Positions 31,472 to 37,647 of a DNA stretch of 64,000 bases are shown here, piece after piece (the stretch's first letter is position 1; the number at the start of each line of letters is the position of its first letter). Source of the stretch: Planctomycetota bacterium. Lineage in GTDB: Bacteria; Planctomycetota; UBA1135; UBA2386. Where the stretch lies: NCBI GenBank assembly GCA_965223545.1, contig OZ245006.1, positions 4,192,001 to 4,256,000 of the forward strand, given 5' to 3'. The notes beneath the pieces are model-generated. The model worked only from the letters and a program-made list of their open reading frames with translations, had not been told where the DNA came from and ran no database searches. The translations under genes and the position numbers were made by a program.

Positions 31472-31544
31472 TGCGGTGACTCGAGCGCCGGCCTTGCGGC
31501 TATGCTACGAGGCTGTTGCCCGTCGAGTGCAAAGAGGTCGTGTC

Positions 31545-32198
31545 ATGCGCGATTTGTCCCTCACTTCTGCTCGCCGCCAGCGGCGTGCCGGTCCGTGGTT
31601 GGTTGCGTGCTTCTCCTGGCTGGTGGTCATGCCAGGGGCCCGGGCGCAGGAAGTCGAGCCCCCGCCCCCGCCGCCGGCCAGGGCGGAGGAGGTCGGCGGT
31701 GGTCTGTCGAATGAGTACATGACGATCTCCGTCAACGAGGAGAAGGGCATCAGTCTGCCCGAGTTCGTCAAGCTGGCGCAGACCCTGACCAACTCCTCGA
31801 TCGTGTACGAGCCCGGACTGTTCGACGGACAGCCGCCGCTGCGGCTGCCGGAGAGTCAGCGTCTCCGCGTGGTCGACTTCATGCTCCTGTTCAAGAACGT
31901 GATGGCGGCGCGCGGCTTCACGGCGGAGCGCATTGGTCGCAGCGACGGGCGCCTGTGGCAGGTCGCCGTCGATCCCCGGTCGATGGTGACCCTGACCGTG
32001 CGCGATGCCGAGCTCCGCACGGTCTTGGCGGACATCCTCGATCGCGGCGGGGTGGACTACGTCATCGGTCCGTCGGTCTCCGGGCCGGTCTCGATGCGGC
32101 TCACCGGACTGCCGTGGCGGGCCGCGGCCGAGCGGCTGGCTGCCGCTGCTGGCATCCAGCTCGAGGTCGACGACCGCGGGGTCTGGCTGGCGCGGTGA
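31545..32198 (+). CDS. Exported protein with two secretin N0/STN-like domains and no secretin barrel
   Basis: Signal-like segment, then ISLPEFVKLAQTLTNSSIVY (GspD-N0-like) and VTLTVRDAELRTVLADI...VSGPVSMRLTGLPW (STN/PilQ-N0-like). Start uncertain. Confidence 0.55.
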   Translation: MRDLSLTSARRQRRAGPWLVACFSWLVVMPGARAQEVEPPPPPPARAEEVGGGLSNEYMTISVNEEKGISLPEFVKLAQTLTNSSIVYEPGLFDGQPPLRLPESQRLRVVDFMLLFKNVMAARGFTAERIGRSDGRLWQVAVDPRSMVTLTVRDAELRTVLADILDRGGVDYVIGPSVSGPVSMRLTGLPWRAAAERLAAAAGIQLEVDDRGVWLAR

Positions 32199-32371
32199 GC
32201 CTCCGGCGCCTCGAATCTTCGAGCTTCGACAACATTCTCGAGGCGACGTCGCTGCCATGGCGACAACGCCGCCGCGCCGGAGGCTCGGAGAGACAGTGCC
32301 TCCTGGCTCAGCGCGGCGGCGGATGGGTCGGACCTTCCAAACCGCGCCGGCAAGAGCGGCATCCGAGTTTG
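32191..32371. repeat. Diverged copy of the ~200-bp palindromic repeat, left of the IS110 insertion
   Basis: Shares CGCGGTGAGCCTC, CCGGAGGCTCG, GGCTCAGCGCGGC and CCGGCAAGAGCGGC..TCCGAGTTTG with 34312-34524 and 35716-36193. Confidence 0.8.
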
Positions 32372-32434
32372 ATATCTCCTAAGTCATGTCAAGGGGTTTT
32401 CGCTGGGGCTCGACATCGCGTGTGCACGGCTTGT

Positions 32435-33937
32435 TCAGGACTCTTCCACAAGACCAGGGAAGTGTTCTTGCATGAGATCACCGATCGGGTGAGGTTGACG
32501 TGGGGATTCCACGGCCAGGCCTGTGGCGTCCATTGGGCGGCCACTCAAGTCCCTCGTCGTCGGAGTCCCCACTCGTCCCTGTCGCCGTTGGTCGCGCTCA
32601 TGCCGCTGTGGCGCGACGATGCTGCGCGTGAACTTGGCTGCGATGAGCGCGCGCGCGGCAACCTTCGTGAGCTCGTTGCCGTCGGCGTCTCGCAGGACGT
32701 AGCGGACTTGCGTCGACGCCGGCTTGTCATCGGCGCGCTGGCTGTCGCGACGCTTCAGGAGGGCGTAGACGCGGCGCGCCATCTTGCCAGCCAATGCGAT
32801 GAGGATGAGGTTGTGGTGATCACCTGCGGCGTAGCGGCGAGCGTAGTACGCCGCGAAATCCGGATCCCACTGGCGAGCGACGTCAGCTGCTAGGTAGAGG
32901 TACTTCTTGAGTACTCGTTGGCCGGTTTTGGTGATTGGCATCGAGGGGTCGCTCATGCCCGTCTGCTTCCGGCGTGGACACAGTCCGCAGTAGCTCACGA
33001 ACTTCTTGCCGTTCGAGAACCGCGCGATGTCGCCTACCAAGGCTTCGATGGCCGCAGCGATCGTGGGACCGACGCCGCGCAGTTGCTCGAGTGTTCGGTC
33101 AGGATCGACGCCCAGGTAGAGCTTCTTGATCTTTGCGTCGAGCTTGCGAACGTCCGTGTTCTTGCGCTCGATCTCATCCAGCTCGTACACCACATCCTCT
33201 TGGATGGCCTCGTAGTCGAACGGCATCTGCCCCGCAGCTCGCAGCTCAGCGTAGTACTCGGCGGCCTGTCGGCAGGACTCGAGCACGCGGTCGACCAAGC
33301 ACGGGTCATGCGTTCCCTTGGATCGCTTCGTCAAGAAGCGCTCCAAGCGACTCTTCCCAAGGCCGACCGCTTTCACCGGATCGACGTAGCGCCGCAGAAA
33401 CCCCATCTTAGCGGCACTGAACTTCTCTGCCCCCAAGGCCTTCATGAGGCTGGGATTCGCCAGTACCAGTATCGCGTGCACACGACGCTTGTGGTCGCTG
33501 AGCTCGCGCGCCAACCGCTCACGCCGCTTCACGAGTCGACGGATCGTCGTCTCGTCGGCAGTTGGAACACGCAGCTGGTGGACGCCCTTTGGATCCATCT
33601 GCGGCAGACGCGCAGCGGCCTCGGCGTCTACTACGTCGGTTTTGGTGTGCTTGCTATAGAACTTCCGCAGGTCGCTCAGCTTCTGTGGTTTGCTCACGTA
33701 GATCTGGAACCCTGCGGCGTTCACGTGCGCCGCGATGGGCAGCCACGCCAACCCCGTTGGTTCCATCACGAAGCTCACCGGACCCTCGGCACCTTCCTGT
33801 GCACGGCGCAGCAGAAGGTCAATACCCTCACGGCTGTTCTCGACTGAAAACGGTCTGCCCCGAGACTTCGCACCATCCAGAACGACGGCTCGGTGCTTGC
33901 TCCTCAAGCCGAGATCCAATCCAACGAATCGATTCAT
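32435..33937 (-). CDS. IS110-family DEDD recombinase/transposase
   Basis: FVGLDLG (D), VMEPTG (E), KTDVVDA (DD) and C-terminal LRGVGPTIAA...RFSNGKKFVSYCGLCP...QTG domain; RBS GGAGGGG before the ATG. Confidence 0.95.
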   Translation of the reverse strand: MNRFVGLDLGLRSKHRAVVLDGAKSRGRPFSVENSREGIDLLLRRAQEGAEGPVSFVMEPTGLAWLPIAAHVNAAGFQIYVSKPQKLSDLRKFYSKHTKTDVVDAEAAARLPQMDPKGVHQLRVPTADETTIRRLVKRRERLARELSDHKRRVHAILVLANPSLMKALGAEKFSAAKMGFLRRYVDPVKAVGLGKSRLERFLTKRSKGTHDPCLVDRVLESCRQAAEYYAELRAAGQMPFDYEAIQEDVVYELDEIERKNTDVRKLDAKIKKLYLGVDPDRTLEQLRGVGPTIAAAIEALVGDIARFSNGKKFVSYCGLCPRRKQTGMSDPSMPITKTGQRVLKKYLYLAADVARQWDPDFAAYYARRYAAGDHHNLILIALAGKMARRVYALLKRRDSQRADDKPASTQVRYVLRDADGNELTKVAARALIAAKFTRSIVAPQRHERDQRRQGRVGTPTTRDLSGRPMDATGLAVESPRQPHPIGDLMQEHFPGLVEES

Positions 33938-33959
33938 GTCCCCTCCATGTTCAACGAGT

Positions 33960-34297
33960 GAGTGTCGACGAGAGGACTCTCCCTACCCGCGCAGTCCGCC
34001 TGAGGAGGCGAGTCGCCAAAACGGTTCGTGTTTCGGGGCCGTGATTTCTCACGCCGCCAATCTCCTAAATCGGGTCCCCCACGCGGGAGGAGAGTCGCAG
34101 AACCAAATGAGGGGCCGCTCGAAGCGCCACCATTGCGGCAGATCGCGAAACCTCTCCGTCGCACGCCGGGGGACCCTAAGCTCTCTTGCGGCCGATGACC
34201 AGACTCCCGACACGACTCCTGCGGCTGCACCATCGCGCGAGTCTTCCACACCGCTACGGCGCGACGGGTGTGGAGAACTCTAGCTTCGCAGATCATG
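33960..34297 (-). ncRNA. Candidate IS110 bridge RNA (ends approximate)
   Basis: 5' hairpin followed by two parallel loops carrying target-matching (34133-34139, 34101-34107) and donor-matching (34060-34068, 34020-34031) segments. Confidence 0.72.
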
Positions 34298-34311
34298 GAA
34301 CCACACATACC

Positions 34312-34524
34312 GTTGCGGCCCCGGCCGCGCTGAGCCTCGGGGGCCGAGAATGTTCGAGCGGCAACAACCTTTCGGAAGGCCCGTCGTCGCCGGGACTTCG
34401 ATACCGCAACTCCCGGAGGCTCGAAGACAACACTGGCCTCTGGGCTCAGCGCGGCGGCGGATGGGTTCGGCCTTCCAAGCTGCTCCGGCGAGAGCGGTTG
34501 GTTGCGGCCGTGGCCGCGCTGAGC
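34312..34524. repeat. Continuation of the palindromic repeat right of the IS110 (one unit plus the start of another)
   Basis: GTTGCGGCCCCGGCCGCGCTGAGCCTC...GGCAACAACCTTTCGGAAGGC...CCCGGAGGCTCGAAGACAACACTGGCCTCTGGGCTCAGCGCGGC, highly similar to the 35764-36193 units. Confidence 0.88.
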
Positions 34525-34859
34525 TCGGTGCCCCCGGCCGCCGCTGGGGCGCGGGCCGCCGCCGGGCGCGCCGCGCTTTGGTCTTCTGACCCCGGGATTG
34601 GACAGCAGCGGGCCCCCTCGCTACTCTCCGACCTTTCGTCTGCCACGAACCCGGAGTGAAACCTGGAGCGCGGCGCCCCTGGTACGCAGGGACCGACCGC
34701 GCTCAGTGCCATCGATCGGGGTTGTGTCGACTCCGGTGAATCGGTCGCCGTCGGCCATGGGCCACGGGGCGAGATCCACCTCCTTTGTTTCACGGCCGGG
34801 CAAGGGCGCTCACTCCTGCGCCGGCCTTCCCGAATGGCACCGCCTGAAATCTCCGAGTC

Positions 34860-35378
34860 ATGAGCAAGCGCATTTTCGTCGGCAACCTGAATTACGACAC
34901 CACCGAGGACAACTTGGCCGCCGCCTTCGAGGGGCAGGGCTACAAGTTGGGCAGCTGTCGGATCGTCTTGGACCGTGATACCGGCCGCTCGCGCGGCTTC
35001 GCCTTCGTCGAGGTCGCCGAGGGCGTCGATGCCGACGCCGCCATGCAGGCGTTGGACGGCCACGAAGTCGACGGTCGTCCGCTCCGCGTCAACGAGGCCA
35101 CCGAACGTCCGCGCCGCGAGCGCCCCGCCTTCGGCGGTGGTGGTGGCGGCGGCGGCGGTTACGGCGGCGGCGGGGGCGGCTACGGCGGCGGCGGGGGTGG
35201 CTACGGCGGCGGCCGGCGCGGTGGTGACCGCGGTCGGCGCGGCGGCGGCCATGGCGACCGCGGTCGTCGTGGCGGCGGCGGTGGCTTCGGCGGCGGCGGT
35301 GGCGGTGGCGGCGGAGGCGGCGGTGGTCGTGGCCGCCGCGGCCGCGACGAGCACTACGACAGCCGCGAGGAGTGGTGA
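34860..35378 (+). CDS. RRM RNA-binding protein with Gly/Arg-rich tail
   Basis: RNP2 IFVGNL, RNP1 RGFAFVEV, DGRPLRVNEA and a GGGY/RGG tail. Confidence 0.93.
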   Translation: MSKRIFVGNLNYDTTEDNLAAAFEGQGYKLGSCRIVLDRDTGRSRGFAFVEVAEGVDADAAMQALDGHEVDGRPLRVNEATERPRRERPAFGGGGGGGGGYGGGGGGYGGGGGGYGGGRRGGDRGRRGGGHGDRGRRGGGGGFGGGGGGGGGGGGGRGRRGRDEHYDSREEW

Positions 35379-35483
35379 CCTCGCCGCGGCCGTTGTGCCG
35401 CTGGCATCGTGTGATTGGAGCCCCGATCGCTCCCGCTGTCGCCACTCCCCGCCGCCACCGAAACAACACGGAGTCACCCTGAC

Positions 35484-35708
35484 ATGGCAGATTCGTTTCA
35501 GAAGAGAAACCGGGAACGGCGGAAGCAGCAGCGCCGCCGCGACAAGGCGATCCGCAAAGAGGAGCGCAAGTTTCTGGAACCGCCGGAGGAGGGGATGTCG
35601 GCCGCTGAGCTCGAGGAGATGTTCGAGCAGGCGATCCGGCAGCGCGAGGCGGGCGACGAAGAGGAAGAGGGTGGCGAGGGCGAGGACACCGTCGTCGATC
35701 GCACCTGA
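35484..35708 (+). CDS. Small charged hypothetical protein
   Basis: ATG 35484; basic N-terminus MADSFQKRNRERRKQQRRRDK followed by an acidic C-terminus; follows the RRM gene. Confidence 0.6.
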   Translation: MADSFQKRNRERRKQQRRRDKAIRKEERKFLEPPEEGMSAAELEEMFEQAIRQREAGDEEEEGGEGEDTVVDRT

Positions 35709-35715
35709 CGCTAGT

Positions 35716-36193
35716 CTCCGGCGCCACGAATCGTCGAGCCGCTCCGGCAAGAGCGGCTCCGAGTTTGGTTGCGGCCCCGGCCGCGCTGAGCCTCAGGGTC
35801 CGCAAGTCTTCGCGCGGCAACAACCTTTCGGAAGGCTCGATGCCGCTGGAACTTCGACAACGCAGCTCCCGGAGGCTCGAAGACGACACTGGCCTCTGGG
35901 CTCAGCGCGGCCGCCGGCGACCGCGGGACCCGCGACCGACGCTCGGGTCGCGGAATGCTCCGTGTTTGGTTGCGCCCCCGGCCGCGGTGAGCCTCAGGGT
36001 CCGCAAGTCTTCGCGCGGCGACAACCTTTCGGAAGGCTCGATGCCGCTGGAACTTCGATACCGCAGCTCCCGGAGGCTCGAAGACAACACTGGCCTCTGG
36101 GCTCAGCGCGGCCGCCGGCGACCGCGGGATCCGCGACCGACGCTCGGGTCGCGGAATGCTCCGTGTTTGGTTGCGCCCCCGGCCGCGGTGAGC
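35716..36193. repeat. Tandem 201-bp palindromic repeat array (about 2.2 units)
   Basis: TTTGGTTGCG recurs at 35764, 35965 and 36166 (period 201). Unit 1 contains a perfect 15-bp inverted repeat, 35778-35792 / 35899-35913. Confidence 0.92.
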
Positions 36194-36348
36194 GTGCGGT
36201 CGGGGTTCTCGAATTGAGAGCGCGTCGCTCGGCGTCGCGTCTCCGCAGCGGACCTTCCGACGACGCCGCGAGTTGACCGCCCGAGCACGGCGCGGTCCCG
36301 CGCCCGGCAGTGGTTTTTCGGCTCCGCCGTCGGTGCAGGAACCTCCGT

Positions 36349-37647
36349 ATGTGGCCGATCAGCGGGGCACGTGGAGGCGCTGTCTTGCTGTTGATCCTGA
36401 GCCCACATCGCGTCGGCGTGCGTGGCGACCGCTACGCACTGGACGCCGACCTTCATCGAGAGCTTTGTTGCTATGCCGAGCGGCTGGGGGGCGCGGTGGC
36501 GTGCCTCGCCGTCCGGGAGACCGACGATGACGGCGCCACCGACGGTGGCACCATCGTCCTCGCGCCGGCAGAGCTGCCCTACGAGCTCCGTCTCGTCGAC
36601 AGCGAGGCCGGCGGCGGGCGGAGCGAGGCGCTGCGCGCGGAGCTCGCGGGCCAACTCGAGGGTGTGACGCTGGTGGCCGGCGCGGCGACGGACGCGATGG
36701 CCGCGACCGTGTTCGAGATCGCCGGAGAACGCCAAGTGCCGTGCGTGCCGCTGGTGGACGACACGGGTGATGTGTTCGGCGGGGCTGCCGGGGTCGGAAT
36801 CGTCGGCCGCGTGCTGGGTGCGATGCGCAGTCATGCGCAGCAGCGACAAGTGCGCAAACAGCTCCGCGGTGCCGCGGCGGTCCAATGCGTCGGCTTCACC
36901 GCCCATGAGCAGTGCGTCGCTCTCAACCCCGACGCCGTGGTCGTGCTGCACTCTCGCCTGCACGCCGAAGAGGTCGTCTCCGTCGAGCGAGTGCACCGGC
37001 GCGTGGCCTCGCTGCACAACGGCCGGCGCCCGAGGCTGTTCTGGGCGGGCCATCTCGAGGAGGAGCGCGGCGTGTTGGAGATCGTCGGCCTCGCTCTCGA
37101 GCTGCGCCGGTTGGGGCAGGATTTCCGATTGCAGATCTTCGGCCGCGGCTCGCTGCGCGGCGAGATCGAGCGGCGCATCGAGCAGGAAGGCGCCCAGCGT
37201 TTCGTCGAGGTTCACGGGCCGCTGTCCTGGGCGGACCAGCGGCAGGTCATGAACCAGTCGGACCTGTCGCTCAGCTTCGGCTACGCGCCCGGCGTCGTGC
37301 GCCCGGTGCTGGAGGCGATGGGCGCGGGGTTGCCCGTCCTGGGCCCGTCCTGCGGGTCTCTGGGCCTGCTCGCCGACATGTCGTCGGCGTGTGTCGTGGT
37401 CCCGGAGGACAACGTCGCCGCCGCGGCGCGAGCGGCCCGCCGGGTGCTGCGCGACCGCAGCCGACTGCTGTCGCTGTCCCTGGCGGCCCGGCGATTCGCG
37501 GGGGCGCACTGCGCGGAGCGACAGTGGGAGCGCCGCGTGGAGCACTGGCGCCCGTTGTTGGAACGCGTGCCCGCGCCGGCCGGCGCCGGCGAGCCGTCGG
37601 CCGCCACGCCGTCGGCCGCCGCGGAGCCGGTCTCGATCGAGAGCTGA
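36349..37647 (+). CDS. GT-B (family 4-like) glycosyltransferase
   Basis: LFWAGHLEEERG, IFGRGSLR and PVLEAMGAGLPV motifs; start uncertain. Confidence 0.75.
   Translation: MWPISGARGGAVLLLILSPHRVGVRGDRYALDADLHRELCCYAERLGGAVACLAVRETDDDGATDGGTIVLAPAELPYELRLVDSEAGGGRSEALRAELAGQLEGVTLVAGAATDAMAATVFEIAGERQVPCVPLVDDTGDVFGGAAGVGIVGRVLGAMRSHAQQRQVRKQLRGAAAVQCVGFTAHEQCVALNPDAVVVLHSRLHAEEVVSVERVHRRVASLHNGRRPRLFWAGHLEEERGVLEIVGLALELRRLGQDFRLQIFGRGSLRGEIERRIEQEGAQRFVEVHGPLSWADQRQVMNQSDLSLSFGYAPGVVRPVLEAMGAGLPVLGPSCGSLGLLADMSSACVVVPEDNVAAAARAARRVLRDRSRLLSLSLAARRFAGAHCAERQWERRVEHWRPLLERVPAPAGAGEPSAATPSAAAEPVSIES

Follow-up and report, generated by a model that had tools for sequence, protein, structure and literature searches.

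The locus raises two questions: whether the non-coding end of an IS110-family insertion sequence encodes a guide RNA that selects the insertion site, and how such a system operates when donor and target carry unlike core dinucleotides. IS110 elements carrying bridge RNAs are already known, having been published in 2024. Of the IS110-group elements in catalogues, 85.7% were predicted to have such an RNA (Durrant et al. 2024, PMC11208160), and IS621 of Escherichia coli comprises a recombinase and a 177-nt bridge RNA (PMC11208160, PMC11208158). Here and below, statements on published systems refer to the accessible parts of the papers cited. Bridge recombinases are under development as programmable tools for DNA insertion, inversion and excision. 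The DNA studied is a window of 64,000 nucleotides, by which we mean the whole stretch that was analysed; (-) denotes its minus strand.

The element is 1,940 bp long, occupies 32372-34311 (-) and runs from GGTATG... to ...GGAGATAT. These bounds follow from the empty form, found in contigs of one public run, in which position 32371 is joined to 34312. The gene is flanked by a left end of 374 nt (33938..34311, -), which is non-coding and is assigned as the bridge RNA gene, and a right end of 63 nt. The genome of the window (8.1 Mb, 69.7% G+C) holds 11 copies of the element. These show no difference over all 1,940 positions, although this identity could in part stem from the assembly's handling of repeats, and their flanks are always GCCGCAAC and CAAA. 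The element is probably an intact, active insertion sequence. We note that it, or parts of it, is present in sequencing runs under many organism labels from 17 studies (runs X1-X20).

The occupied target consists of a left half, GCCGCAAC, at 34312..34319 (-), in which the target core AC lies at 34312-34313, and a right half, read from the junction as CAAAC, at 32367..32371 (-). The 12-mer GCCGCAAC/CAAA (the slash marks the point of insertion) is found unoccupied at 95 sites of the genome, where composition would lead one to expect 0.8. The majority of these empty 12-mers fall in a host repeat with a unit of about 200 bp. A tandem array of this repeat (2.2 copies, 96% matches) lies at 35756-36193, and the empty target in this neighbouring copy, 35764..35775 (-), reads GCCGCAACCAAA. 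The repeat is also seen at the flanks of the element (32200-32371 and 34312-34500). A separate, long and imperfect CGG/GGC triplet array, with 64 copies of the period-3 unit, lies at 35132-35349 within open frames adjoining the element.

The recombinase gene (32435..33937, -) encodes a 500-aa protein with DEDD RuvC-like and Tnp domains (PF01548, E 1.9e-24, 86.7 bits against a cut-off of 29; PF02371, E 4e-21, 75.6 bits against a cut-off of 21.3). Residues D8, E59, D101 and D104 are kept in 48-53 of 53 relatives. A sequence search of solved structures retrieved ISCro4 (E 9.2e-17) and IS621 (E 2.2e-13). The same two proteins are the best fold matches to an AF2 model of mean pLDDT 87.5 (TMt 0.73, E about 1e-12), with about 20% identity over the structural alignment. 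Both are shorter, at 326-341 aa against 500 aa. The AF2 model has a helical insert at about 164-234, within the coiled-coil region, and a conserved, confidently modelled C-terminal extension at about 403-455 comprising a beta-hairpin and helices.

The PRR..SG motif of IS621 aligns without gaps with PRRKQTG, which places Thr326 at the position of Ser241. In the deposited IS621 chain this serine is numbered 243; as that chain has 328 residues, we take the numbering to be shifted by two. Judged from the alignment, Thr326 would keep a hydroxyl group at the putative nucleophile position. In the 53-protein alignment this column holds 27 Ser and 26 Thr, with repeated changes between them. The family has been described as proteins of 300-460 aa with "a highly conserved serine" (Durrant et al. 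2024, PMC11208160). Threonine at the Ser241 position is not named in the accessible parts of the bridge recombinase literature searched; the supplementary tables of Durrant et al. 2024 may list the clade. The 11 identical copies suggest that the threonine form is active. An apparently active element with threonine where the nucleophile is expected is a further oddity, and one open to testing.

The left end very probably encodes a bridge RNA composed of a 5' hairpin, a target-binding loop and a donor-binding loop, which would act by the mechanism proposed below. The 5' stem-loop, at about 34239..34280 (-), appears in the minimum-energy and centroid folds, and a CCACA...TGTGG hairpin is found at the equivalent place in relatives. 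The target-binding module (34089..34157, -) has an outer stem, an internal loop and a hairpin. Its left guide, GCCGCAA (34133..34139, -), has the sense of target positions 2-8, and the U at 34132 that follows it faces C9. After the hairpin (helix 6, 34111..34131, -) comes the right target guide TTTGGTT (34101..34107, -), made up of UUUG, a GU facing the core and a U facing A7. A second GCCGCAA, equal to the left target guide, is seen about 50 nt upstream of it (34186-34192, -) and is absent from relatives.

The donor-binding loop is built in the same order. Its left guide, TTAGGAGAT (RNA UUAGGAGAU; 34060..34068, -), matches 9 of 9 bases of 32382-32374, the left donor half within the right end (TTAGGAGAT, 32374..32382, -). 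The hairpin (helix 7, 34035..34058, -) is followed by the right donor guide, ACACGAACC then GUU (34020..34031, -). The reverse complement of this guide agrees with AAC/GGTATGTGT (34314-34303) at 10 of 12 positions, and its two inner mismatches are also present in relatives. As in the published scheme (PMC11208160), the left guides share the sense of the top strand and so would bind the bottom one, and the right guides are complements of the top strand. The four guides lie where the original prediction had put them; its coordinates, and the hairpin that it noted ahead of the guides, were confirmed on the minus strand. No match to the covariance models of Rfam 15 was obtained in 31500-36500 at E values up to 1.

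The target guides specify the 12-mer GCCGCAAC/CAAA inside the host repeat. That the element is programmed against this repeat, as had been claimed, is supported by all 11 copies sitting at the 12-mer and by the 95 sites still empty. The finding accounts both for the burst of 11 identical insertions and for the 12-mer that is sought.

If these segments are guides, they should change along with the flanking DNA in relatives inserted elsewhere, as the original prediction had recognised. In a protein search, 103 relatives had E values of 1e-20 or lower, the closest of them being 73% identical; 53 were aligned, and this alignment led to 26 genome loci and 79 metagenome loci. Upstream regions could be aligned for 11 close relatives, in which the donor-loop guides are near constant and the target-loop guides vary. 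A covariance model of the two loops, built on 24 sequences, gave 65 matches among 100 sources, the most distant in relatives of about 30% protein identity, and matched the window element at 33998-34172 with 127.5 bits. All 65 matches lie upstream of the recombinase gene, except one weak match on the reverse strand. Guide segments were read off the model alignment. Element ends were located by their likeness to GGTAT... (left) and ...TTAGGAGATAT (right); for the metagenome relatives, the ends were thus set by likeness to those of the window element, without empty sites.

The right target guide was compared with the six bases past the right end at the 45 loci that have a right flank (43 non-redundant). 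It matched its own flank at 3.88 of 6 positions on average and the flanks of other loci at 1.59; none of 100,000 permutations reached as high a value, and several of the weak rows are distant relatives whose right end was probably miscalled. For the left target guide, taken at the best of four registers in 24 non-redundant loci, the corresponding values were 6.33 and 3.70 of 8 (0 of 100,000 permutations). This test omits all loci lacking a GGTAT match, as well as L047, L066 and L036, which were left out because their GGTAT match is no credible end. The left donor guide matched its own right end at 5.52 of 8 positions against 4.96 for others (31 loci, 0 of 20,000 permutations); the contrast is small because donor ends are conserved. 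All of these statistics are drawn from elements that are related and hence not independent of one another. In relatives at other insertion sites, both target guides shift along with the flanks, and the left donor guide covaries with the element's own right end.

Some loci fitted poorly: the left flank of L058 (3/8) and the right flanks of L056 and L051 (3/6 each). We note that the sites of some relatives fit just one of the target guides; L058 has 3/8 on the left yet CATG on the right. Such one-guide fits, with the misfit on the left in L058 and on the right in L056, recall the "half-match" insertions described in the accessible part of a preprint (bioRxiv 10.64898/2026.08.31.748434).

By analogy with IS621, the RNA would be transcribed from a promoter rebuilt when excision joins the right end to the left end. 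A candidate -35 box, TTGACA (32387..32392, -), ends 15 nt short of the right end, and a TTG... hexamer is found there in 20 of 20 loci. A candidate -10 box, TATGTG (34304..34309, -), occupies positions 3-8 of the left end; TAT... is present in 20 of 20 loci, although the hexamer agrees with the consensus at just 3 of 6 letters. In the joined ends the two boxes would be separated by 17 nt, as in the split promoters of IS621 (PMC11208158) and ISPpu10 (10.64898/2026.03.19.712850), and the promoter role of the boxes here is a proposal based on this placement. A consensus promoter scan of the integrated element gave no site. The circle junction, GGAGATAT joined to GGTATG, does not occur in the genome; contigs of three public runs contained the empty-repeat joint and the collapsed element, with no circle joint. 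One poly-A RNA library gave 0 reads on the stretch, a count that carries no weight for or against transcription.

The junctions of the integrated element read ...GCCGCAAC/GGTATG on the left and ...GGAGATAT/CAAAC on the right, and no base is duplicated. At their cores they are AAC/GGTATG and GATAT/CAAAC. The element ends in the donor core (32372..32373, -), which is AT in 11 of 11 copies. All 11 left junctions carry AC and all 11 right junctions carry AT, while the swapped forms do not occur in the genome. A core of the IS621 type, shared by donor and target and flanking the element on both sides, is therefore absent here (AT against AC).

The same comparison was made for 20 related loci with credible ends on both sides, selected from the 65 matches. 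Donor and target cores are unlike in 14 of the 20, one of the 14 (L052) having uncertain ends. The donor core is AT in 16 loci, AC in three and AA in one; the target cores are AC, GC, CC, GG, TG, AT and CA. At the letter facing position 9, the right target guide agrees with the target in 19 of 20 loci, switching among C, T and G. The matching letter of the right donor guide also follows the target, in 18 of 20 loci (two read by eye).

In the IS621 numbering scheme, the target's top strand is G2-C-C-G-C-A7, A8-C9, C10-A-A-A. The joined donor is ...A-G-G-A-G-A-T7, A8-T9, then G10-G-T-A-T-G-T-G-T. Not every one of the four guide pairings includes the core. It is read, by way of GU, in the two right guides, whereas the left donor guide stops at position 7, short of the core, and the left target guide extends to position 8 here, to 9 in one sub-branch and to 7 in another (0-2 bases before the junction). 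Both right guides end in GUU, whose last U pairs with A7 of the target. The GUU of the donor loop complements the incoming strand of the target rather than the donor, which is the role described for handshake guides (PMC11208158; 10.1101/2025.05.14.653916). The target guides had been predicted to overlap on AA; the overlap at A7-A8 is real, but the crossover lies one base further on, after C9.

By analogy with IS621, we propose the following course of events. Once excision had joined the ends, recombinase dimers would bind each loop. The top strands would be cut just after position 9, at AC/C in the target and AT/G in the donor, and then exchanged. In this exchange the GU of the right guides would form Watson-Crick pairs with the target AC and a G-T wobble with the donor AT. 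The other strand would then be filled in by replication or repair. For IS621, cleavage of both top strands is reported at the bond between positions 9 and 10, 3' to the core (PMC11208158), and the present junctions put the crossover at the same place. In each copy the left junction carries the core of the target and the right junction that of the donor. We therefore propose that the inherited product is set by top-strand transfer, although the pattern of the junctions would also fit directed repair.

The junctions bear on the dispute between exchange of both strands and top-strand transfer because unlike cores record which strand was inherited. It could be that the guide RNA works as described but both strands are exchanged via a Holliday junction, as proposed for IS621, with the heteroduplex always repaired toward the top strand, or with cuts at the same bond that leave no heteroduplex. 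Bottom-strand cleavage has been seen in IS621 structures, directed repair was left open by the IS621 authors, and the sequence of a junction cannot separate directed repair from single-strand transfer. Against this, 22 of 22 junctions here follow the top strand, an outcome with a chance of 2^-22 if mismatched cores segregated without bias. In relatives the cores differ at both positions (GG, TG or CC against AT), so that repair would have faced two adjacent mismatches. For other IS110 elements, the accessible accounts of experiments favour top-strand or single-strand transfer (10.1101/2025.10.25.684509; 10.64898/2026.08.31.748434). We regard exchange of both strands at this element as rather unlikely.

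It may be, and we propose it tentatively, that the whole branch, whose proteins of about 500 aa have either Ser or Thr as the putative nucleophile, operates with no core common to donor and target. The donor would supply AT, the targets AC, GC, CC, GG, TG or AT, the right-guide letters would be tuned to target position 9, and the junctions would follow the top strand. If so, the clade is natural evidence for insertion by top-strand transfer, and the "matching core" rule of design does not hold everywhere. Elements of this kind would then have been missed or thrown out by pipelines that set element ends from a core on both sides.

The structure of the RNA was assessed by comparison among relatives, with 42 pairs drawn on the model alignment (58 distinct rows). 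Standard pairs occupy 78.5% of cells; with slid partners the share falls to 44.5-52.1%. For covariation the score is 0.367, compared with 0.084-0.117 for slid partners, and none of 500 shuffles reached any of the measures. The hairpin of the target loop (helix 6) is 98.2% paired, with both sides changing in 6 of 7 pairs, and that of the donor loop (helix 7) is 94.0% paired, with both sides changing in 8 of 9; the alignment was fitted to a simpler structure, which favours these hairpins somewhat. The outer stem of the target loop (helices 3-5) is 68-79% paired and also shows compensatory changes.

Folding of the left end as a single sequence was less informative. The 5' hairpin that had been predicted is present in the minimum-energy and centroid folds, but the folds as a whole are no better than those of shuffled sequences (z -0.77 and -1.36). 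The minimum-energy fold also buries parts of the guides; the comparative structure alone places the guides in internal loops. Two partners are available to the stretch that separates the loops, one located 5' of the target loop and the other 3' of the donor loop (34161-34176, 34072-34094 and 33974-33997, -). These two closing pairings are mutually exclusive and both covary, with own versus cross duplex energies of -17.5 versus -13.9 and -20.1 versus -17.5 (28 loci, 0 of 5,000 permutations for each pairing). Since both alternatives covary, the bridge RNA may have two conformers.

The two loops resemble each other, and it had been suggested that they look like an internal duplication. In the window element the 5' scaffold agrees at 6 of 7 positions and the 3' scaffold at 6 of 6, GCGACTC follows both loops, and a local alignment of the loop modules scores 21 against a shuffle mean of 13.9. 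That score was reached by 40 of 2,000 shuffles, which is weak support, and in eight sampled relatives the equivalent count ranged from 7 to 314 of 500. The predicted scaffold repeat behind both loops does exist here as GCGACTC, but it is peculiar to the window element and absent from relatives; throughout the family only the short motifs UGGNGG, CCCC and GUU are common to both loops. Both loops are found in relatives down to about 30% protein identity, so any duplication must be ancient. The loops of IS621 are pseudo-symmetric too (PMC11208158). A recent duplication of one loop module as the origin of both thus appears improbable beside the alternative of an old pseudo-symmetry constrained by the protein.

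Very improbable, and close to refuted, is the reading of the left end as an ordinary 5' leader of the transposase gene with matches arising by chance or as target remnants carried along: the single-sequence folds are not significant and a 7-mer can recur, as GCCGCAA does at 34186-34192, but the guides vary with the flanks across relatives, the stems covary, only 6 of 200,000 shuffles of the 374-nt left end gave both target guides in the correct order and spacing, and the arrangement equals that of IS621 (PMC11208160, PMC11208158). The original prediction of an IS110 bridge RNA, in which the donor loop comes after the target loop, is upheld by the covariation in relatives of guides with flanks and of RNA bases with their partners.

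Compared with IS621, as far as the accessible parts of its description go, the element has much in common. The recombinases share DEDD RuvC-like and Tnp domains, and the place of the RNA is the left end, upstream of the gene. The order of 5' stem-loop, target loop and donor loop is the same, and the strand senses of the guides agree. The top-strand crossover falls immediately 3' of position 9, a host repeat contains the target, and the right donor guide pairs discontinuously. The candidate -35 box lies in the right end and the candidate -10 box in the left end, where IS621 has its boxes. The differences are nonetheless considerable. The protein has 500 aa instead of 326 and Thr in place of Ser241, and the left end is 374 nt long instead of 191. 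Whereas IS621 has a shared CT core, this element joins donor AT to target AC and duplicates no base. Its left donor guide does not read the core, and the core letters of its right guides follow the target and not the donor. The description of the system as distinct therefore stands, on account of the identity of about 20%, the length of the protein, the threonine at the nucleophile position and the lack of a shared core. The system may also be reprogrammable, as had been suggested.

The IS1111 group (Durrant et al. 2024) has the recombinase family in common with this element and an RNA, elsewhere called seekRNA, that pairs with target and donor. There the RNA lies downstream of the gene and the subterminal inverted repeats are long, whereas here the RNA is upstream. 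The IS1111 layout of a downstream RNA in a long right end was not found, as the right end is 63 nt and the model matches are upstream. ISPpu10 of Pseudomonas putida (10.64898/2026.03.19.712850) is similar in its repeated intergenic target, its junction promoter (a candidate here) and its tolerance of guide-DNA wobble pairs; its CT core is duplicated on both sides, while the window element duplicates nothing. For CazIS110-1 (10.1101/2025.10.25.684509) and in cell-free work on IS621 (10.64898/2026.08.31.748434), copy-out excision and top-strand insertion have been proposed, and the junctions here are what that model predicts. Those studies are experimental and concern cores that are alike, whereas the present evidence consists of natural junction sequences.

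We found no statement on unlike donor and target cores in the accessible parts of the bridge RNA literature searched; this is no proof of absence, and the supplementary tables of Durrant et al. 2024 may hold the clade. One mining pipeline, as its accessible text has it, rebuilds sites "around the shared core" and drops elements without a core on both ends (10.64898/2026.10.21.760802). The best match in both sequence and fold is ISCro4, or IS622 (PDB 9t56; 10.1101/2025.05.14.653916), which shares the two-loop RNA logic and the handshake guides. Present design rules call for a core dinucleotide common to donor and target (10.1101/2025.05.14.653916), and the engineering of IS622 accordingly picks pairs of sites with matching cores, whereas the clade of the window element naturally joins unlike ones. 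A natural, multi-copy element with an AT donor and an AC target, together with relatives that join AT to GG or TG, would relax the matching-core rule.
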